A stretch of 53,443 nt of DNA, taken from assembly GCA_026415985.1 (NCBI GenBank), contig JAOAGA010000003.1, positions 1-53,443 of the forward strand. The letters are read 5' to 3'. The stretch comes from Pseudomonadota bacterium (GTDB lineage: Bacteria > CALINM01). Both the position numbers and the translations under genes were made by a program. Shown piece by piece: positions 8,627 through 46,972 of this stretch; position 1 is the stretch's first letter, and every line of letters begins with the position of its first letter. The notes under the pieces are model-generated. The model had not been told where the DNA came from. It saw only the letters and a list, made by a program, of their open reading frames with translations, and made no database searches.

Positions 8627-9528
8627 AAAGAGATTTTTTAAGGCTTCTTGACCTATCTCCTTCTGAGATAGATAAAATTATTAAAAGAACCTCCCTTTTA
8701 AAAAAAAACAGAGGAAAGACAGAAAAAAAACTTCCTTTAAAAAATAAGACAACCGCTCTTATTTTTGAAAAATCTTCAACCCGAACGAGGGTATCCTTTG
8801 AAGTAGGTGTCTATGAGTTAGGTGGCAAATCAATTTTTTTAAGTCCAAGAGACCTTCAAATGGGAAGGGGAGAACCTATAAAAGATACCGCAAGGGTTCT
8901 TTCAAGATATGTTCATCTTATAGTTTACAGATGTTTTGAGCATTCAAAGCTGGAAGAACTGGCAAAATATTCTTCCTGTCCTGTCATAAACGGGTTATCA
9001 GATTTAACTCATCCGGTGCAGGTTCTTTCAGATCTTTTTACTATCTACGAGCATTTTGGAGACTATAAAAAACTTAATATCAGCTGGGTTGGCGATGGCA
9101 ACAATATGGCTAATGCCTGGATAGAAGCCCATTTGGTATTAGGTTTCAATCTTACCCTTGCCTGTCCCAAAAAATATTATCCCGATAAAGAACTTTTAAA
9201 AAGGGCTATGAAAAACAAAAATTTCAGGATTACCGAAGATCCTAAGGAAGCAGTTAAATCATCGGATGTCATTAACACCGATGTGTGGATTAGTATGGGA
9301 GACGAGGAAGAGGCAGAAGAAAGAAAAAGGGCCTTTAAGGGTTATCAGATCAACAGGGATCTTTTAAAACTGGCTGACAAGAATGCCATAGTTCTTCACT
9401 GTCTCCCCGCCTACAGAGGTCAGGAGATTACCGATGAGATAATAGAGGACAAAAAATCGGTTATTTTTACACAGGCAGAAAACAGATTACATACACAAAA
9501 GGCATTAATGGAGTTTTTAGTTAAATAA
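8623..9528 (+). CDS. argF: ornithine carbamoyltransferase
   Basis: [22 protein letters not shown]. Confidence 0.97.
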
Positions 9529-9547: not shown

Positions 9548-10741
9548 ATGGCTAAAAAGATTGTTCTTGCGTACTCAGGCGGGCTCGATACCTCTGTAAT
9601 ACTAAAATGGCTTAAAGAAACTTATAAAGCTGAGATAATCGCCTTTGCCGCAGATTTAGGACAGGGAGAAGAGCTTGATACCGTGGAAGAACGGGCTAAA
9701 AAAACAGGTGCCAAGAAAGTGTATATTGATGATCTGAGAGAGGAGTTTGTCAGAGATTTTGTTTTTCCCATGCTTAGAGGAAACGCTATCTATGAAACAG
9801 GTTATTTACTGGGCACTTCAATAGCAAGACCATTAATCGCAAAGAGACAGATTGAGATAGCCAGGAAAGAAAAGGCAGAATACATTGCCCACGGTGCTAC
9901 CGGTAAAGGAAATGATCAGGTCAGATTTGAGCTTACCGCTTATGCCCTTATGCCAAATATAAAAATAATTGCTCCGTGGAGAGAATGGAATTTCAAATCA
10001 AGAACAGATTTAATAGACTATGCAAAAAAACACAAGATACCGGTTCCGGTAACAAAGGATAAACCTTACAGTAGTGACAGGAATCTCTTACATATAAGCT
10101 ATGAAGGGGGCATACTGGAAGATATTACAAAGGAACCGCCTGAGGATATCTTTCAGATAACAATATCACCGCAAAATGCTCCAGACAAACCAGAGTATAT
10201 TGAGGTTGAGTTTAAAGCGGGTGATCCCATTGCTATTAACGGAAAGAAGATGAAGCCACACATTTTGCTTGATACACTTAACAAGATTGGCGGAAGAAAT
10301 GGCATTGGAAGAGATGATATAGTGGAGAACAGGTTTGTAGGTATGAAATCGAGAGGAGTATATGAAACTCCCGGTGGAACCATAATTCATAAGGCAAGAA
10401 GGGCTCTTGAAGCGATAACTCTCGACAGAGAGGTATTAAGGATTAAAGATAGCCTTATGCCTAAATATGCAGAGCTTATTTACTATGGATTCTGGTTTTC
10501 CCCTGAAAGGGAGTTACTACAGCAGTTTATTGATACTGCATCAAAAAATGTTGAGGGTAAGGTTAGACTTAAGTTGTATAAGGGCAACGTAATAATAGCT
10601 GGAAGAGAGTCCAAAAAGAGCCTCTATATGGAAAAGATGGCAACCTTTGAAAAGGATGATGTTTACAATCAAAAAGACGCAGAAGGATTTATAAAACTCA
10701 ACGCATTGAGATTGAGAATCAGGGCTATGTTGGATATATGA
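9548..10741 (+). CDS. argG: argininosuccinate synthase
   Basis: [32 protein letters not shown]. Confidence 0.98.
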
Positions 10742-26877: not shown

Positions 26878-27390
26878 TTACAGCATCATATCTATCATTC
26901 TTGCTAATTCCCCCCCTTCAACATAGCCGGTAATTGTCTGAATTAATCTGCCTTTTTTGTCATACAATAATGTGGTTGGAACAGCATCAATCTTATAGAT
27001 ATTGTTTAAATCCTGGGTTGTAAGATATAGTGAGTAGTTGATATTTACTTTTTCGGCAAAGGGTGTAACTGCAGAAGCGCCATTTTCATCTATTGCTATC
27101 CCAATAAACTCAACATTTTTGCTCTGATAGGTCTTGTAAAGTTCCACTAACTCGGGAACCTCTTTTCTACAAGGCGGACACCATGTGGCAAAAAAATTAA
27201 CGAGAACTACCTTGCCTTGATTGGATTTCAGTATTTCCTGAAGATCTTTTGCAGATATTGATTTAAGCTCCTTTGTGCTTTTGCTTTCAACGGTTTTCTG
27301 AGGTGTTGTTTCAGCCTTTTTTTCTTCTTCCTTTTTTGCACAGGAAAAAATGAACAAACTTACTAAAACCAAGAAAAAAAATCTCTTCAT
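26878..27390 (-). CDS. TlpA-family thiol:disulfide oxidoreductase lipoprotein
   Basis: Lipobox IFS-C; VNFFATWCPPCRKE; VPTT. Confidence 0.9.
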   Translation of the reverse strand: MKRFFFLVLVSLFIFSCAKKEEEKKAETTPQKTVESKSTKELKSISAKDLQEILKSNQGKVVLVNFFATWCPPCRKEVPELVELYKTYQSKNVEFIGIAIDENGASAVTPFAEKVNINYSLYLTTQDLNNIYKIDAVPTTLLYDKKGRLIQTITGYVEGGELARMIDMML

Positions 27391-28272
27391 TTATATCTCC
27401 TTTTTTATCAAATCAGTCTTTTGTGCCCCGACTAATTCTATAGATATTGCTCCAAATTTGCAAGAGTCTGTATAGCATTTAAAGCATCTTATGCAGTTTA
27501 GCTGATTGGCACCATCGGGGAATTTTAAATGCATGGGGCAATCACGGTAGCATTGATAGCATCTTACACATTTATCTTTATTGTGGCTCATCCTGAGAAT
27601 ACTAACCTTGTTAAAAAGTGAGTAAAAACCACCTAAAGGACAGATGGTTCTGCAAAAGGGCCTTCTTATAAAAACCATCGAGACAAGCAAAAAAATTAAG
27701 ATAATCAGCTTATTGTAAAATAAAACTCCTATGAGCCTCTGAAGAGAGTTATCAAGAAACATAAGAGGTATTCCCGCTGTAAGAGTTCCCGCTGGACAGA
27801 CATATTTACAAAACCAGGTAATACCGTAACCAAACTCATCAACTATAAGTAATGGCAGGATAATTACAAAACCAAATAAGAATATATATTTTCCATATTG
27901 TAACTTAGAGGGAATGTTAAATTTTTTTGATGGTATCTTATGAATAAGTTCTTGTAGAAAACCAAAAGGGCAGAGCCAGCCACAGGGAAATCTGCCCACA
28001 AGCATTCCAATGGTTCCGAGAAAACCAACTACATAAAAGCCAAAATGATATTTCATGGAGCTTATAGAAACCCTTATGTTACCCAAAATAACCTGTAATG
28101 CTCCCATTGGACAGGCAAGAACTGATGCGGGGCAGGAGTAACAGTTAAGTCCGGGGGCACAAAAAGCCTTTGTAGGACCCTGAAAGATTTTTTTTGTCCA
28201 GATGAAGCCAAAATAGGAGTTATTTAAAAAGGTTACGATGGTTTGTATGATCCTTCTTAGATGTTTTGTCAT
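27391..28272 (-). CDS. membrane 4Fe-4S binding protein (NapH/YccM-like)
   Basis: CAPGLNCYSCP, CGWLCP, CKYVCP, CRTICP and two CxxCxxC ferredoxin motifs; TM helices; ATG 28272 overlaps the upstream stop (ATGA). Confidence 0.88.
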   Translation of the reverse strand: MTKHLRRIIQTIVTFLNNSYFGFIWTKKIFQGPTKAFCAPGLNCYSCPASVLACPMGALQVILGNIRVSISSMKYHFGFYVVGFLGTIGMLVGRFPCGWLCPFGFLQELIHKIPSKKFNIPSKLQYGKYIFLFGFVIILPLLIVDEFGYGITWFCKYVCPAGTLTAGIPLMFLDNSLQRLIGVLFYNKLIILIFLLVSMVFIRRPFCRTICPLGGFYSLFNKVSILRMSHNKDKCVRCYQCYRDCPMHLKFPDGANQLNCIRCFKCYTDSCKFGAISIELVGAQKTDLIKKEI

Positions 28273-28406
28273 CCTATACCTACACAGCTTAGACAAATCC
28301 TTATCGCCTTTTCAAGAACAGCGGAAAATTCACTGAAGTTTATGCCTAATATGAAAATTACTACAAAAAATATTAATAAAAGGTAGCTTTTTCTGACTTC
28401 ATTCAT
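28269..28406 (-). CDS. CD1871A-type CXXC microprotein (45 aa, not in the ORF track)
   Basis: Hand translation MNEVRKSYLLLIFFVVIFILGINFSEFSAVLEKAIRICLSCVGIG*; one TM, C-terminal CLSCVGIG; coupled to the 4Fe-4S gene. Confidence 0.85.
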   Translation of the reverse strand: MNEVRKSYLLLIFFVVIFILGINFSEFSAVLEKAIRICLSCVGIG

Positions 28407-28477
28407 TTTTTTATTATATTACTAATATTAATTTTTTCAATTTAAAATTATTAAATTTGATGAAATAGGCGTTTCAT

Positions 28478-28594
28478 TTTTAATGATTTGTTTCACAAAT
28501 ATTGTTCTGAATTTTTTCATTAAAAATCAGATATTTGAAATAAAGATTAAATCAAATGATAAAAAAAGCCTTTTTGTGAAACAAATTATTAAAA
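28478..28594. promoter_or_regulatory. pair of 22-bp inverted sites in the divergent promoter region (candidate activator/repressor sites)
   Basis: ttttaatgatttgtttcacaaa (28478-28499) and tttgtgaaacaaattattaaaa (28573-28594) are reverse complements with 1 mismatch. Confidence 0.6.
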
Positions 28595-28645
28595 GAAATT
28601 AAAAATAAAAATTCAATTATTTCAGTAATTTGTAAAAATTAAGTT

Positions 28646-28662
28646 TTGGCATTATAATTGAT
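28646..28662 (+). promoter_or_regulatory. putative sigma54 (-24/-12) promoter of the cytochrome operon
   Basis: TTGGCAT-TATAA-TTGAT, correct GG-N10-G spacing, GA in place of GC at -12; about 43 nt before the ATG. Confidence 0.55.
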
Positions 28663-28704
28663 AATGTAAATGAAAATAAAAGAAAATTAATAGGGGGTGA
28701 TTTT

Positions 28705-29037
28705 ATGAAAAAAATAGTAGTTTTTTTAGTTGTTCTATCTTTTTTTAGTGTTTCCTATGCTGTCGACGCAAAAAAAGGTGATATCAATAAGGGAAAACAG
28801 CTTTACAGAGAAGTTTGCAGGAGTTGTCACGATGGTTCTAAGGCAAAAAAGGTAACACCTATGCATAAGACTACCGCACAGTGGAAAAAATTGTTTGATA
28901 ATGATATGGCAAGGCTAAAGGAAAAGCATGAAGGCAATGATGCCTTCAACAAGATTAAGGCAGAGGATTTTGACCACATCTATAGGTTCGTACTGGATGG
29001 AGCATTAGACTCTGAGCAACCACAGACCTGTGATTAA
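28705..29037 (+). CDS. periplasmic monoheme cytochrome c
   Basis: Signal peptide (SYA), GKQLY..VCRSCH, C-terminal DSEQPQTCD. Confidence 0.88.
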   Translation: MKKIVVFLVVLSFFSVSYAVDAKKGDINKGKQLYREVCRSCHDGSKAKKVTPMHKTTAQWKKLFDNDMARLKEKHEGNDAFNKIKAEDFDHIYRFVLDGALDSEQPQTCD

Positions 29038-29101
29038 AAATGGTTACAGGTGTAAGTTTTGGTTTTGATTCAACCTTAATTAATAATTTGGAGGTATTAA
29101 G

Positions 29102-30961
29102 ATGAGAAAATGTTTTGTTTTGCTTATGTTAATGTTTTTTACTACCCTTTCAGGAAAGGTTTTTGCACAGGAACAACCAAAGGTTGAAGACTTATTGAAA
29201 CAGATTAAGCAGTTAAAGTCCGAGCTGGCAGAGATAGAAGACAGGGTATCTGCAACAGAAAGACATACCGTAACAGATAAGGTAAGTTTGGGAATTGATT
29301 TCAGAACCCAGGCTATTTCAGCCCATTACAAAGACTTAAGAGGACTACCAGAGTGGGCGAGTTCAATGATGCAGTTATGGGCCTTTAACAGGCTTGCTAT
29401 TGATGGGACAAAAATTGGCGGAAATCCTATCCCGTCCGGAAGCAGTAGTTATACATTCAATCCAACCTTTTTACAGAAATACGGAGCAACATTGCAACCT
29501 ATGTTTCCCGCAATGGTCTCTTTAGGATTCGTAAACGGCGGTGCTTTTCTCGATATGAATGGCAACAGTACCTTTGATGCTACAGCTGATCTGCCGGTAC
29601 TTGGTAATAACTCTCTTGGCAACCCTCATTTTTCAGGCACCTTTGGTGCAACTGACCTCGCTAAGTATCAGGGAATGTTTAAAAGCATAGCACCACAGAA
29701 ATATGATTCCAACAATGATATTATGTTTACTAACAGACTGAGAGTTAACCTGGATTCTAAGGTCTCAGATAATCTTTCTTTTTCTGGCAGACTTGCCATG
29801 TATAAGACCTGGGCAGATGCGTCAGGTGTAAAATTTTATAATGGCAATATGAATACAATGAATATGGATGGTAATGATGTTTCCGTTCCTACCGATGATT
29901 TACTTAAGGTAGAAAGGGCATATTTTGTTTATAAAAACAGGTGGGGTAAGGTAGACTGGCATCTGTCCTTTGGCAGAAGACCCGCAACAGATGGTCCGCC
30001 TCTGGAGCTTAAGGCAAACTCAGAGGTTGGAGGCTCTCCCCTCGCCCATATTATAAACTGGCAGTTTGATGGTGCCTCCTGGGGGTTTGAGCTTGAAGAG
30101 TTAACGGGTATTCCCGGTGCATCTTTTAAGCTTTGCTATGGTGTAGGCTTTGAGTCGGGGGTAGGCAACTCCTATTCCTTAACTTCTCAGAATAATGTAA
30201 AAGATGTTCATATGCTTGGTTTTATTGCAAAGCTATATGACAACAAGAACACAAAGGTTGCTGTAAACTACGCCCACGCCTTTGATATTACCGATGGTTT
30301 TACAGGAACAGTGATCATGCCTTTTACGATAAATGCCCTTGATATTGATGGTAATGGTGTTTTTGATGAGTACTATCTAAACCCAAACTGGGGTGGTTAT
30401 GTATCCCGTATGCAACCTACCGCAAATATTGGTTCTATGGATATGGTAAACGTTCTCTATCAGTCAAAGGTTAAAGACATTAACTATTTTGTCTCTTTGG
30501 CATTGAGCAATACAAATCCCGACGGCAGATCCATGAACCCGATGATGCAGTTTATGGGACAGGACGCATTGTTAAACGATAACGGCGAACAAAAATCAAG
30601 AACAGGCTATTCTGTCTGGGCTGGGATCAAGGCACCAGTTACAGTTACTAAAGGTCAGTTAGGGCTGGAATATAACCATGGTTCCAAATACTGGCTTAAC
30701 TTTACAGGTGCAGAAGACAATGTGGTAGGCTCTAAGATTGCAGTAAGAGGAGATGTTTACGAAGTTTATTATATTCAACCAATCACTGGTAAAAACTTCT
30801 TTTTAACTCTTGGTGCCCAGCTTTATGATTATGATTATACAAATAGCGGTAGTCCGTTGGGTGCACCTAAGAAGATATCAGATGTGAATGCATTGGATAG
30901 TCTGATGCCTGTAGCAGACAAGATCAATGTTTATTATGCATCTCTTACCTATAGGTTCTAA
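29102..30961 (+). CDS. DUF3373-like outer-membrane beta-barrel protein
   Basis: Signal peptide (VFA-Q), N-terminal coiled coil, amphipathic beta strands (TNRLRVNL, VERAYF, GRRP.TDGPP), C-terminal YYASLTYRF barrel signature. Confidence 0.78.
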   Translation: MRKCFVLLMLMFFTTLSGKVFAQEQPKVEDLLKQIKQLKSELAEIEDRVSATERHTVTDKVSLGIDFRTQAISAHYKDLRGLPEWASSMMQLWAFNRLAIDGTKIGGNPIPSGSSSYTFNPTFLQKYGATLQPMFPAMVSLGFVNGGAFLDMNGNSTFDATADLPVLGNNSLGNPHFSGTFGATDLAKYQGMFKSIAPQKYDSNNDIMFTNRLRVNLDSKVSDNLSFSGRLAMYKTWADASGVKFYNGNMNTMNMDGNDVSVPTDDLLKVERAYFVYKNRWGKVDWHLSFGRRPATDGPPLELKANSEVGGSPLAHIINWQFDGASWGFELEELTGIPGASFKLCYGVGFESGVGNSYSLTSQNNVKDVHMLGFIAKLYDNKNTKVAVNYAHAFDITDGFTGTVIMPFTINALDIDGNGVFDEYYLNPNWGGYVSRMQPTANIGSMDMVNVLYQSKVKDINYFVSLALSNTNPDGRSMNPMMQFMGQDALLNDNGEQKSRTGYSVWAGIKAPVTVTKGQLGLEYNHGSKYWLNFTGAEDNVVGSKIAVRGDVYEVYYIQPITGKNFFLTLGAQLYDYDYTNSGSPLGAPKKISDVNALDSLMPVADKINVYYASLTYRF

Positions 30962-30973
30962 CTGAATAGTTAC

Positions 30974-31016
30974 AGGTTTAGGTTATGGTTGGTCAGTTTC
31001 TCCATAGCCTAAACCT
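30974..31016 (+). other. intercistronic stem-loop (15-bp stem)
   Basis: aggtttaggttatgg ... ccatagcctaaacct; no U tract, so possibly an mRNA stability/processing element. Confidence 0.6.
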
Positions 31017-31092
31017 AAACTTTAACTAAATGGTATTTAGTCTTTAAGGAACAAGCAATTTTAAATTATTTAATGTTTTTGGAGGCAATTAA

Positions 31093-32514
31093 ATGAAGAA
31101 GTATCTGATTTTTATTTTGTTGGCAATGTTTACGTTAGTAAGCATTGGCTATTCACAAAGGACCGGAGAGGGGGTGTACAAGGAAGAAGGTGAAAACCCC
31201 CATGAAGGATATGTAAAGAGTTTTGAGGGAACTAAAACCTGTCTTGAATGTCATGAAAAAGAGGCGAAGGACGTTTTTCATAGCACCCATTATCAGTGGA
31301 AGACCGACACATCAGATGTAGTTGGTGGTTCAGGAAAGAAACTTGGCAAAATTAACGTCATCAATGACTTTTGCACGGGACCATGGATTAACTGGATATT
31401 TGATATTAAAAATAAAGGTGGAAAGATAGTTACCAATGGTTGTTCTAAATGTCATGCGGGACTGGGGCTTATGCCCTCTGAGACAATGTCACAGGAACAG
31501 CTGGAAAACATCGATTGTCTTATATGTCACGCCCCCGGTTATAACAGAAAGGTTGTGAATGATAACGGAAAGCTGAGATGGGCACCTGCCGATGAAAAGG
31601 ATGTTTTGTTAGTGAGGGCACAAAATGTTCAGAAACCTAAAAAAGGTATGTGTTTGAGATGCCACGCGGGAGCGGGTGGTGGATTCAATTTTAAAAGGGG
31701 TGATATTGAAGCGGGTATGGTAAAGGCAGATAAAGACTTAGATGTTCATCTGGCAGGTGGGCTAAATTGTGTTGATTGCCACAAGAGTAAAGAACACAGG
31801 ATTTCCGGAAGAGGTGTTGACCTGGCAGGAAGGGACAACAATGAGTTCAGACCTACATGTGATACTAAGGATTGTCATGGTAATAAACCCCATAGTAAGA
31901 ATGTCCTTAACAAACATACCGCTTCTCTTGATTGCACCGTTTGTCATATCCCTGAGTTTGCTAAAAGAGAAAAAACTGATATGGAAAGAAACTGGGCACA
32001 TCTTGAGTATTTAAAAGATGCCGACAAATATGAGCCGGAGATAAAATTTCAGAAGAATGTAATTCCCGTTTATGCCTGGTGGAATGGCAGATCTTTCATA
32101 AATGACCCTGAAAAACCTATTAAAGACACCAAGACAATCTTTAAGATGGCAAAGCCGGATGGGAGTATAAAGGATACAAAATCAAAAATCTATGCCTTTA
32201 AACTTCATAAGGCAAATCTGCCCTATGACACAGAAACAAAAAGATTAATTCCTGTTGCAACCGATATTGCTTTTCTAGAAGGGAATGTAGATAAGGCAAT
32301 AAAGGAAGGTGCAAAAAGGGCCTTTGGAAAGGAACTGCAAAGGTATGATTTTGTTAAAACGGAAAGATATATGGGAATATTCCATGGAGTCTCACCAAAG
32401 GAAAAGGCTCTGAAATGTAATGATTGTCATTCGGAAAAGGGAAGAATCGATTTTAAAGCCTTAGGTTACAAGGGAGACCCGATGAAAGTTGGTGGCAGAT
32501 TTTCTAAGAAGTAG
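31093..32514 (+). CDS. octaheme c-type cytochrome, tetrathionate reductase (OTR)-like
   Basis: Signal peptide; 7 CxxCH (CLECH, CSKCH, CLICH, CLRCH, CVDCH, CTVCH, CNDCH) plus CDTKDCH; GK...INDFC segment and C-terminal FKALGYKGDP as in the OTR family. Confidence 0.8.
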   Translation: MKKYLIFILLAMFTLVSIGYSQRTGEGVYKEEGENPHEGYVKSFEGTKTCLECHEKEAKDVFHSTHYQWKTDTSDVVGGSGKKLGKINVINDFCTGPWINWIFDIKNKGGKIVTNGCSKCHAGLGLMPSETMSQEQLENIDCLICHAPGYNRKVVNDNGKLRWAPADEKDVLLVRAQNVQKPKKGMCLRCHAGAGGGFNFKRGDIEAGMVKADKDLDVHLAGGLNCVDCHKSKEHRISGRGVDLAGRDNNEFRPTCDTKDCHGNKPHSKNVLNKHTASLDCTVCHIPEFAKREKTDMERNWAHLEYLKDADKYEPEIKFQKNVIPVYAWWNGRSFINDPEKPIKDTKTIFKMAKPDGSIKDTKSKIYAFKLHKANLPYDTETKRLIPVATDIAFLEGNVDKAIKEGAKRAFGKELQRYDFVKTERYMGIFHGVSPKEKALKCNDCHSEKGRIDFKALGYKGDPMKVGGRFSKK

Positions 32515-46270: not shown

Positions 46271-46972
46271 GTGAATATTTCTGATGATTTGAGAAAAACC
46301 TTATTGTTTTCAGGGCTTTCAGAGGAGGATCTGAAAGAAATTGCTAAGATAGTGATAGTTAAAGAGTATCCAAAAAAATCTATTATCTTTTCTGAAGGAG
46401 ATGAGGCAAAAGGTTTCTACATTCTCCTGTCGGGGATGGTTAAGATTTATAGAATTTCCACCGATAGCAGAGAACAAATCTTACATATTATCAACCCCGG
46501 AGAAACCTTTGCTGAAGCGGCTATTTTCATAGGAAAAAACTATCCTGCCTTTGCGGAGACCATACTGGATAGCAGGTTAGCCTATATTGACAAAAAAATT
46601 TTTTTAAAGACCCTTGAAAAAAACTCCAAGATAGCATTAAATCTGATAATAAGTTTATCGATGCTTTTAAAGAAGGTAGTTGATCTTGTTGACAATGTCT
46701 CTCTTAAAAATGTCGATGCCCGACTGGCAGAGTTCCTCATAGAGGAAGCCATAAGAAAAGGTAAAAAGATTGACGATTATATAGAGATTGAGCTAAATAT
46801 TACAAAGACTGAACTTGCCAAGAAGTTAGGGACAGTAAACGAGACCCTCTCAAGATCTTTAAGAAAGTTAAGAGAAAAAGGGATAATTGATGCTGAAAAA
46901 AATAAGGTTTACATCTTCGAGCTTGAGAAACTTCAGGAGATAAAAACCTTAGGAAGTCTTAGGATTGATTAA
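46271..46972 (+). CDS. Crp/Fnr-family regulator (no Cys cluster; Dnr/HcpR-like)
   Basis: LFSGLS, IFSEGD, GETFAE, HTH LGTVNETLSR; no cysteines. Confidence 0.88.
   Translation: MNISDDLRKTLLFSGLSEEDLKEIAKIVIVKEYPKKSIIFSEGDEAKGFYILLSGMVKIYRISTDSREQILHIINPGETFAEAAIFIGKNYPAFAETILDSRLAYIDKKIFLKTLEKNSKIALNLIISLSMLLKKVVDLVDNVSLKNVDARLAEFLIEEAIRKGKKIDDYIEIELNITKTELAKKLGTVNETLSRSLRKLREKGIIDAEKNKVYIFELEKLQEIKTLGSLRID

Follow-up and report, generated by a model that had tools for sequence, protein, structure and literature searches.

The 53,443-nucleotide stretch of DNA analysed here (the window) comprises positions 1 to 53,443 of the forward strand of contig JAOAGA010000003.1, from assembly GCA_026415985.1 of a Pseudomonadota bacterium (GTDB lineage Bacteria; CALINM01), and between positions 26,878 and 32,514 it carries six redox genes arranged as a minus-strand trio and a plus-strand trio lying back-to-back. 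The plus trio encodes a small cytochrome c, an outer-membrane barrel of family DUF3373 and an octahaem cytochrome c of the OTR family, and the minus trio a CXXC microprotein, a NapH-like membrane Fe-S protein and a TlpA-like lipoprotein. All six open reading frames (ORFs) were confirmed in the ORF listing of the window at the positions given by an earlier examination of the sequence without database searches (the sequence-only reading), and the gene content and family names put forward there agree with the ORF positions and with Pfam and NCBIfam scans. The region is best described as two independent operons that are divergent neighbours in one genus only. The explanation to which we give a little more credence than doubt is that the plus trio is a periplasmic terminal-reductase module, probably for sulfur compounds, and the minus trio an independent housekeeping thiol cassette. 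In such a module a small anionic substrate would enter through the DUF3373 porin in the outer membrane, the octahaem, as an OTR-type enzyme, would reduce that substrate at a lysine-ligated haem beside a catalytic cysteine, and the small cytochrome, the porin's constant companion, would either deliver electrons to the reductase or handle the substrate by means of its C-terminal cysteine. We infer both the direction of electron flow and the substrate, which is most likely an S-S-bonded compound such as tetrathionate, polysulfide or thiosulfate.

The separation of the two trios is shown by their distribution. The window's genome (G000; 1.57 Mb in 161 contigs, 84% complete) belongs to a phylum represented in the collection by six species genomes, all of one family and spread over three genera, of which the window's own is g1. 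The cassette of microprotein, NapH-like and TlpA-like genes is intact in all six, but it adjoins the plus trio in only three, all of genus g1 (the window and loci L002 and L004). In G001 contig 15 carries the cassette and contig 17 the plus trio. In G006, where DUF3373 is the sole gene of the plus trio that was located, this gene lies on contig 95 and the cassette on contig 66, and in G007 (91% complete) the cassette is present and no DUF3373 match was found. A set of DUF3373 loci from other genomes was also assembled by a pattern search of species-representative genomes, the loci analysed being the best-scoring 80 of 421 relatives, and the cassette was found at two of these 80, which are the two g1 congeners. 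The sequence-only reading had taken the six genes to form one respiratory module, for which it had itself proposed co-occurrence of the trios in related genomes as a test; the trios lie side by side only in genus g1 and the proposal fails.

Beyond the phylum the cassette has a life of its own. A CD1871A-like microprotein match, like an orthologue of the NapH-like gene, was found in each of the six genomes of the phylum; among 145 diverse genomes of other lineages, seven gave a CD1871A-like match. Four of these seven outside matches have a NapH-like gene directly after them, with E values from 4e-87 to 4e-50. A TlpA-like neighbour is present at two of the seven, at one of them together with the NapH-like gene and at the other with the TlpA-like gene before and a peroxiredoxin gene after the microprotein. 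In four other phyla-level lineages the CD1871A/NapH-like pairs are flanked by genes unrelated to respiration (CNNM transporter, pseudouridine synthase, Mrp/NUBPL, GroEL, hydrogenase and epimerase genes). As the cassette is kept in six out of six genomes and has unrelated flanks elsewhere, it can be regarded as an independent and widespread unit.

It could nevertheless be maintained that all six genes constitute one respiratory module, in which the NapH-like protein oxidises quinol and passes the electrons to the octahaem whilst TlpA and the CXXC peptide serve the octahaem specifically. The divergent layout with its shared spacer is kept in all three g1 genomes, but the trios lie apart in the other three genomes of the phylum, the cassette is missing from 78 of the 80 DUF3373 loci and in other phyla it stands alone amid unrelated genes. 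A second argument for the single module is that no other quinol dehydrogenase was found beside the plus trio or, as regards the NapC/NrfH family, in G000. However, in relatives the OTR gene is followed by a cytochrome b561 gene (17 of the 80 loci) or the operon has no quinol dehydrogenase next to it, and the 301-residue protein reaches 57.7 bits with the NapH/MauN model TIGR02163, a quarter of its cut-off of 213.05, so that the suggestion of a NapH-type protein as the link to quinol is not supported. The single free cysteines of the plus-strand proteins could, it is true, be kept reduced by a periplasmic thiol reductase. Taken together these points make a single six-gene module quite improbable, and they carry a caution for annotation, namely that divergent adjacency in one genus does not amount to a functional module.

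The octahaem identifies the kind of operon to which the plus trio belongs. The 473-residue protein matches NCBIfam model octaheme_Shew (TIGR04315) with an E value of 7.8e-92 over model positions 17-440 of 440, and its residues 42-465 match OTR of Shewanella oneidensis (SO_4144; 1SP3) with an E value of 1.3e-60. It has eight haem motifs, seven of them CXXCH and one CX4CH, which align with the eight sites of 1SP3, and the eight-haem OTR-like cytochrome of the sequence-only reading is confirmed by the motifs, the full-length model match and this alignment. Lys86 (31348-31350) and Cys94 (31372-31374), the latter being the sole non-haem cysteine of the protein, align with K56 and C64 of 1SP3, which we take to be a ligand of the catalytic haem and the active-site cysteine, respectively. 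In an alignment of 34 octahaems (the window protein and 33 relatives found beside DUF3373 genes) eight haem motifs were present in 32, the exceptions being one protein with 13 and one truncated ORF with six, and a G-K...N-[DN]-[FYN]-C motif was present in all 34, with F in 32. Unlike the Shewanella enzyme, with which it shares full-length homology, the eight haem sites and the K56/C64 equivalents, the window octahaem scores below the subfamily cut-off and has a sixth haem motif (31858-31878) of the form CX4CH, as have all four phylum members, against CENCH in 1SP3 and in eight of eight Acidobacteria. One octahaem encoded beside a DUF3373 gene in a member of the Desulfobacteraceae (L039, 538 residues) reaches 506 bits, which is above the TIGR04315 cut-off.

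The gene order of the plus trio appears to be the same as that of SO_4142-SO_4143-SO_4144 in Shewanella, in so far as the available parts of the sources allow the comparison: the three have consecutive numbers, SO_4142 is annotated as 'periplasmic monoheme cytochrome c', SO_4143 as 'uncharacterized protein' and SO_4144 as otr, and those parts show a joint rise of all three in one data set and place them in one oxygen-sensing regulon. The plus trio is an operon of the OTR kind, in an uncultured small phylum. SO_4143 is presumably a DUF3373 protein. To our knowledge the physiological role of OTR-type octahaems has been unclear ever since the structure was solved.

Amongst 64 OTR-family matches from a sample of 251 Desulfobacterota genomes, 19 carry one in-frame TGA, and in the three genes examined (L123, L124 and L125) the TGA falls in each case at the position of C64 of 1SP3. 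On the strength of the alignment this codon probably specifies selenocysteine, and such an exchange of cysteine for selenocysteine would mark the residue as catalytic. 1SP3 is the single relative in the Protein Data Bank (PDB) of both the cysteine and the TGA forms. The TGA-bearing forms end in a hydrophobic C-terminal segment. Genes for molybdopterin oxidoreductases of about 900 residues with one in-frame TGA were also seen in G006, G008, G009 and G010, which suggests selenoprotein synthesis in the lineage of the window.

What the octahaem may reduce is suggested by the company that its operon keeps. A homologue of the small cytochrome is within 10 kb of DUF3373 in 72 of the 80 loci, and of the eight loci without one, six are on contigs no longer than 7.2 kb. 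OTR-family octahaem genes are present at 33 loci, often followed by a cytochrome b561 gene (17 loci), rhodanese genes at 24, and genes for a molybdoenzyme whose best match is thiosulfate reductase PhsA at 11, together with those for an Fe-S subunit (11) and a cytochrome b561 subunit (8); the PhsA-like molybdoenzymes score 562 and 507 bits, under the PhsA cut-off of 694 bits. A YeeE/TsuA-like membrane protein is encoded at nine loci, and a sigma-54 PAS activator and a Tll0287-like protein at 31 each. At least one of OTR, rhodanese, molybdoenzyme and YeeE is found at 58 of the 80 loci, and the link between OTR and DUF3373 spans the window's phylum, the Acidobacteriota and the Desulfobacterota. 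These sulfur-linked neighbours point to sulfur compounds, with the barrel as a substrate channel, and they support the link to sulfur chemistry that had been suggested from the sequence.

There is some likeness between DUF3373 loci and two described systems tied to chalcogen reduction, the Geobacter ext cluster (a porin-like ExtI, a rhodanese-like ExtH and multihaem cytochromes) and a 2026 report of a 'multiheme selenoenzyme essential for elemental sulfur respiration', in that an outer-membrane porin-like protein, a rhodanese and multihaem cytochromes are encoded together. The rhodaneses beside DUF3373 match ExtH weakly, and in the text of the 2026 report as available 'lysine' and '1SP3' each occur 0 times, so that its enzyme is probably not OTR.

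The alternative substrate is a nitrogen oxyanion, the plus trio reducing nitrite or hydroxylamine for respiration or detoxification and the porin admitting nitrite. OTR belongs to a group of multihaem cytochromes with lysine ligation that includes the NrfA-type nitrite reductases, it reduces nitrite and hydroxylamine as well in vitro, and parts of the window octahaem give weak matches to NrfH and related cytochromes in NCBIfam. However, the recurrent neighbours of DUF3373 and OTR are linked to sulfur and no nitrogen-cycle gene was found among the annotated recurrent clusters, and the replacement of the active-site cysteine by selenocysteine in relatives fits chalcogen chemistry better than it does nitrite reduction. 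A nitrogen substrate is therefore considered unlikely, if by no means negligible.

A number of observations weigh against a sulfur-reducing module accompanied by a housekeeping cassette, and should be set out together. The octahaem, at 308.6 bits, is under the curated TIGR04315 cut-off of 375, and its reductase activity is a prediction from sequence to which reduction of a nitrogen substrate is the alternative. The association of OTR with DUF3373 is facultative: a manual count in the Desulfobacterota sample gave 52 genomes with an OTR-family gene, 36 with a DUF3373 gene and 12 with both within 10 kb, so that 40 of the 52 OTR-bearing genomes have no DUF3373 gene within that distance and 24 of the 36 DUF3373-bearing genomes no OTR. 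Of 20 further DUF3373 loci, seven have no small cytochrome within 5 kb, and since 38 of 125 representatives of the small cytochrome family lack CXXCH, electron carriage cannot be the general role of that family. The second search pattern by which DUF3373 relatives were found includes the conserved cysteine of the barrel, which biases the 80 loci for that residue, and as the top scorers among the relatives they are no unbiased sample. No quinol dehydrogenase was found that might feed the module, nor was a gene of the NapC/NrfH family in G000 (84% complete). No gene at the level of dsrA or PhsA was found in any of the six phylum genomes, and a sulfur-respiring lifestyle therefore lacks independent support. 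As to the cassette, CcdA occurs alongside it in four of the six phylum genomes, and it is thus not a simple replacement for CcdA.

DUF3373 itself (PF11853) was found in the 619-residue barrel protein with an E value of 3e-139 and 465 bits, against a gathering score of 26.1, over all 409 model positions (1-409) and residues 202-619. In the available part of one source DUF3373 corresponds to putative porin family 1.B.62 of TCDB (PMC4827864), and no function was found assigned to it in the literature returned by a full-text search, as far as the texts were accessible. The barrel protein is homologous to Omp50 of Campylobacter (10aw/10dn), with E values of 1.7e-17 for the single sequence and 1.9e-28 for a profile, and the homology includes the N-terminal helix and the first strand, which align with Omp50 residues 42-97. 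Omp50 is described, in the part of the report available, as a trimer of 16-stranded barrels in which a 44-residue N-terminal helix forms a periplasmic three-helix coiled-coil stalk and loops enter the pore (PMC13759207). An AlphaFold2 model of the window protein, built from a 54-row alignment (pLDDT 78.7, pTM 0.74), has 16-18 strand segments by DSSP and a helix at residues 28-52 (29183-29257); a fold search with it gave 329 matches in the PDB at E<=0.001, of which the 46 listed are without exception outer-membrane barrels (AlgE, OmpF, OmpC and similar proteins), the best of them with 16-18 strands. The model, the fold matches and the YRF end agree with the earlier assignment of the 619-residue protein as a beta-barrel. 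Compared with Omp50 (CjTK) of Campylobacter jejuni, with which it shares the homologous barrel and the order of N-terminal helix then strand 1, the window protein differs in some 118 residues inserted behind the first strand (residues 78-195, 29333-29686), which are confidently predicted and have three helices, in a shorter predicted stalk helix (28-52) and in having cysteine in place of alanine (K-L-C-Y-G versus R-A-A-Y-G) at its single mature cysteine, Cys345 (30134-30136). The DUF3373 protein is accordingly predicted, by homology and by its modelled fold, to be an Omp50-like porin, and if the oligomeric state follows that of Omp50 it would probably be a trimer held together by an N-terminal periplasmic coiled coil.

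The co-occurrence of porin and cytochrome genes in one operon might suggest a conduit of the MtrAB kind, in which barrel and cytochromes would pass electrons through the outer membrane to an insoluble acceptor, Fe(III) or S0 for example, and the 118-residue insert of the barrel, whether it lies at the cell surface or plugs the pore, could be cited in favour. Porin-cytochrome conduits, however, use much larger barrels. The window barrel is homologous to Omp50, with its 16 strands and its loops closing the pore, and its best fold matches are porins of 16-18 strands; an Omp50-like, loop-constricted porin would be a solute channel and not a sheath for a 50-kDa cytochrome, and the earlier idea that the barrel might hold the cytochromes is unlikely for this reason. 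There is, moreover, no lipoprotein or surface-type decahaem cytochrome encoded, a one-haem protein cannot span the membrane and the small partner is often without haem. A prediction of the complex of barrel (28-619), haem and small cytochrome (21-110) gave scores of 0.01 and 0.00, which speak neither for nor against binding. We regard a conduit as very improbable indeed.

A different objection is that DUF3373 is a general or major porin, like Omp50, and is linked to redox genes through co-regulation under anoxia and not through substrate specificity. In Dissulfuribacter thermophilus disproportionating thiosulfate, a DUF3373 protein was one of the most abundant proteins, according to the available part of that report (PMC13490349). 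G000, G001, G002 and G006 were each found to have a single copy, all four sulfur-linked gene types are missing from 22 of the 80 loci, and the two-thirds of Desulfobacterota carriers (24 of 36) that have no OTR within 10 kb can be counted on the same side. A general porin would not, on the other hand, be expected to have the small cytochrome as a near-constant partner (72 of 80 loci), to recur with that partner beside four sulfur-linked gene types in at least three phyla, or to keep an invariant single cysteine in phase with the lumen (54 of 54 barrels) that is absent from Omp50. There is, in our estimation, a small chance that the protein is a general porin. A further locus (L137, G400:C223:36000-53000) has seven divergent DUF3373-like barrel genes in tandem and six small cytochrome genes interleaved, all of them without paired cysteines.

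The small cytochrome, of 110 residues, matches Cytochrome_CBB3 in Pfam (E 3.1e-07), and the family to which it belongs numbers 622 representatives at E<=0.001 in a search of 1.84 billion proteins. Its model is all-helical (pLDDT 72.9) and gave weak cytochrome c6-like matches, the best with an E value of 0.13 and TM scores of about 0.4-0.5; a word-based homologue search yielded 12 close relatives, none of them informatively named, and matches in the protein atlas were to generic cytochrome c clusters. In 54 small cytochromes encoded beside barrels G30, P52, W60, A100, D102, P106 and the penultimate Cys109 are invariant, and the first haem cysteine and the haem histidine are often lost. Among the 125 representatives of 95-170 residues, 87 have CXXCH, 18 have CH only and 20 have neither, and there is a cysteine within the last three residues in 93.

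There is exactly one non-haem cysteine in each of the three plus-strand proteins, namely C109 of the small cytochrome, Cys345 of the barrel and Cys94 of the octahaem. The barrel cysteine is invariant in 54 of 54 aligned proteins and the sole mature cysteine in 50 of them, and it probably faces the lumen, since it shares a strand face with an invariant lysine. The 20 further DUF3373 loci mentioned above were taken by the Pfam model and are unbiased for cysteine; neither partner has its cysteine at nine of them, both have it at three, one is mixed and at seven a cysteine-bearing barrel has no partner within 5 kb. When all 72 pairs were pooled, 57 had both cysteines, 14 neither, one the barrel cysteine only and none the partner cysteine only, so that 71 of 72 were concordant. 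On the tree, however, this reduces to one deep split, with two and one changes and two independent pairs, and has no statistical weight.

The boldest interpretation of these residues is that the plus-strand proteins form a cysteine (persulfide or disulfide) relay that moves sulfane sulfur across the outer membrane to the octahaem. Cys109, on a flexible tail, would reach into the pore, take sulfur from (or tether to) Cys345 of the barrel and pass it to the octahaem, and the small protein would act as a carrier like SoxY or DsrC and not just as an electron carrier, which would explain why its family keeps the tail cysteine while often losing the haem. The relay is retained as a distinctly unlikely reading, and a terminal reductase supplied through a porin is preferred. 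The pair of DUF3373 and the Cys-tailed small cytochrome keeps company with OTR, PhsA-like, rhodanese and YeeE-type genes in no fewer than three phyla, which suggests that sulfur compounds may enter through the outer membrane by this route. The pair as an entry device with paired cysteines, which we consider likely, was not found in the literature searched and is directly testable, and through this hypothesis both the physiological role of OTR and the function of DUF3373 become testable as well.

Two of the three proteins of the minus-strand cassette resemble known families without reaching their curated cut-offs. The 170-residue protein matches Redoxin/AhpC-TSA in Pfam (E 1.7e-17) and fold families at E values of about 1e-17, and its best NCBIfam models are ResA (92.1 bits, cut-off 170) and TlpA (65.2 bits, cut-off 230), neither cut-off being reached. 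The 301-residue protein matches Fer4_5 (E 9.6e-21), and besides its score with TIGR02163 it has 52 bits with NapH NF007013 (cut-off 234) and 15.9 bits with CcoG (cut-off 317). The 45-residue microprotein scores above the cut-off of its family, CD1871A_fam NF040920 (41.9 bits, cut-off 32). Fer4_5 domains, CX3CP motifs and the C-terminal two-cluster ferredoxin motif are shared with the NapH/MauN/CcoG polyferredoxins, but the 301-residue protein is far below all the curated cut-offs, has no NapA, NapG or oxidase gene nearby and is encoded by a gene that, within the cassette, always has the CXXC microprotein gene before it; no nap genes were named among the window proteins in the NCBIfam and library scans. 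In the same way the 170-residue protein has the membrane-anchored periplasmic thioredoxin fold and the CXXC of the CcdA-ResA/TlpA branch, its best models being ResA, StoA and TlpA, but its neighbours encode an Fe-S membrane protein and a microprotein instead of a member of the DsbD/CcdA family. The real start of the NapH-like gene is likely to be Met9, which gives a 4-nucleotide overlap with the microprotein gene.

The cassette is most likely a free-standing housekeeping unit that feeds reducing power across the membrane to a periplasmic thioredoxin-like protein, a role that we infer, and the reducing power might perhaps be used for instance in cytochrome c maturation. CcsA-type genes of cytochrome c synthesis are present in all five genomes searched for them, and in a search of four genomes the cassette TlpA was the sole long TlpA-like match in G000, G009 and G010, with a second one in G006. 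The cassette would serve the plus operon indirectly at most. Substitution of the cassette for CcdA was considered and rejected, as DsbD_TM was not found in G000 and G002 but is present in G008, which belongs to the same genus, as well as in G001, G006 and G007. G006 and G007 also contain paralogous NapH-like genes, with neither a microprotein nor a TlpA gene next to them. The CD1871A/NapH-like(/TlpA) cassette thus emerges as a separate, widespread and unstudied thiol/Fe-S unit.

Table 1. Features of the divergent locus, in coordinates of the window.
Feature	Position	Strand	Remarks
TlpA/ResA-like thioredoxin-fold lipoprotein, 170 aa	26878-27390	-	lipobox Cys17, WCPPC 70-74; third gene of minus cassette
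NapH/MauN/CcoG-type membrane polyferredoxin, 301 aa	27391-28296	-	CX3CP three times (105, 163, 215), C-terminal CX2CX2CX3C (243)
CD1871A-family microprotein, 45 aa	28269-28406	-	basic N-terminus, one hydrophobic helix, C-terminal CLSC (residues 38-41; ends CLSCVGIG)
Divergent spacer, 298 bp	28407-28704		AT-rich
Sigma-70-like consensus match	28440 to 28413	-	best in spacer, 11/12 matches; ends 7 nt before microprotein ATG (28404-28406)
Inverted pair, perfect, 11 nt (TGTTTCACAAA and its complement)	28489-28499 and 28573-28583		73 bp apart; partly conserved in congeners
Sigma-70-like consensus match	28630-28658	+	in spacer
Sigma-54-like consensus match, TGGCAT-N5-TTGAT	28647-28662	+	43 bp before cytochrome gene
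Small periplasmic class-I-like cytochrome c, 110 aa	28705-29037	+	signal peptide; CRSCH residues 38-42 (28816-28830); other Cys is C109 (29029-29031)
DUF3373 outer-membrane barrel, 619 aa	29102-30961	+	signal peptide, Pfam domain residues 202-619, ends LTYRF
RNA hairpin	30975-31015	+	just 3' of barrel stop codon; no U-run after
OTR-family octahaem cytochrome c, 473 aa	31093-32514	+	signal peptide, no lipobox

The features of the locus are collected in Table 1. A shared AT-rich control region of some 300 bp had been noted between the trios, and the measurements bear this out, with a length of 298 bp and a G+C content of 0.16-0.26 (windows 28200 to 28799) against about 0.35-0.44 in the surroundings. 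No Shine-Dalgarno sequence is visible upstream of the microprotein ATG, and judging from the position of the minus-strand sigma-70-like match its mRNA may be leaderless. The sigma-54-like match is kept in all three genus g1 sequences, RpoN is present and the site overlaps the plus-strand sigma-70-like match. It is the single match in the window, where 0.37 would be expected by chance, and at least one match occurred in 32 of 100 shuffled sequences; as a significant promoter it was rejected on this count and it is mentioned as a lead only. The 11-nucleotide inverted pair could be the site of a regulator or a chance product of very AT-rich DNA.

The hairpin that follows the barrel gene has a predicted free energy of -24.3 kcal/mol and a z score of -4.42, and none of 200 shuffled sequences folded as well, whereas the one downstream of the cytochrome gene, at 29026-29051, is weak (z -1.44; 18 of 200 shuffles). 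The spacer between barrel and octahaem genes is 131 nucleotides in the window compared with about 50 nucleotides in L003 and L004. In L003, from a g3 relative, a tRNA-Gln gene (9398-9474) is directly upstream of the plus trio, at the position of the window's divergent cassette, and may mark a rearrangement point. In the congener L004 a frameshift or an assembly error divides the small cytochrome gene between two overlapping ORFs (9603-9767 and 9764-9940).

The locus as a whole is flanked by housekeeping genes, with a deacetylase-like gene upstream and that of RNase G downstream, and the remaining genes of the window are likewise of a housekeeping nature (arginine, methionine and threonine synthesis, HslUV, RNase G, Trk and GroESL). 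A regulator of the Crp/Fnr family (FtrB-like, E 1.3e-29) is encoded on the plus strand at 46271-46969, 14 kb downstream of the locus, and is a candidate anaerobic regulator.

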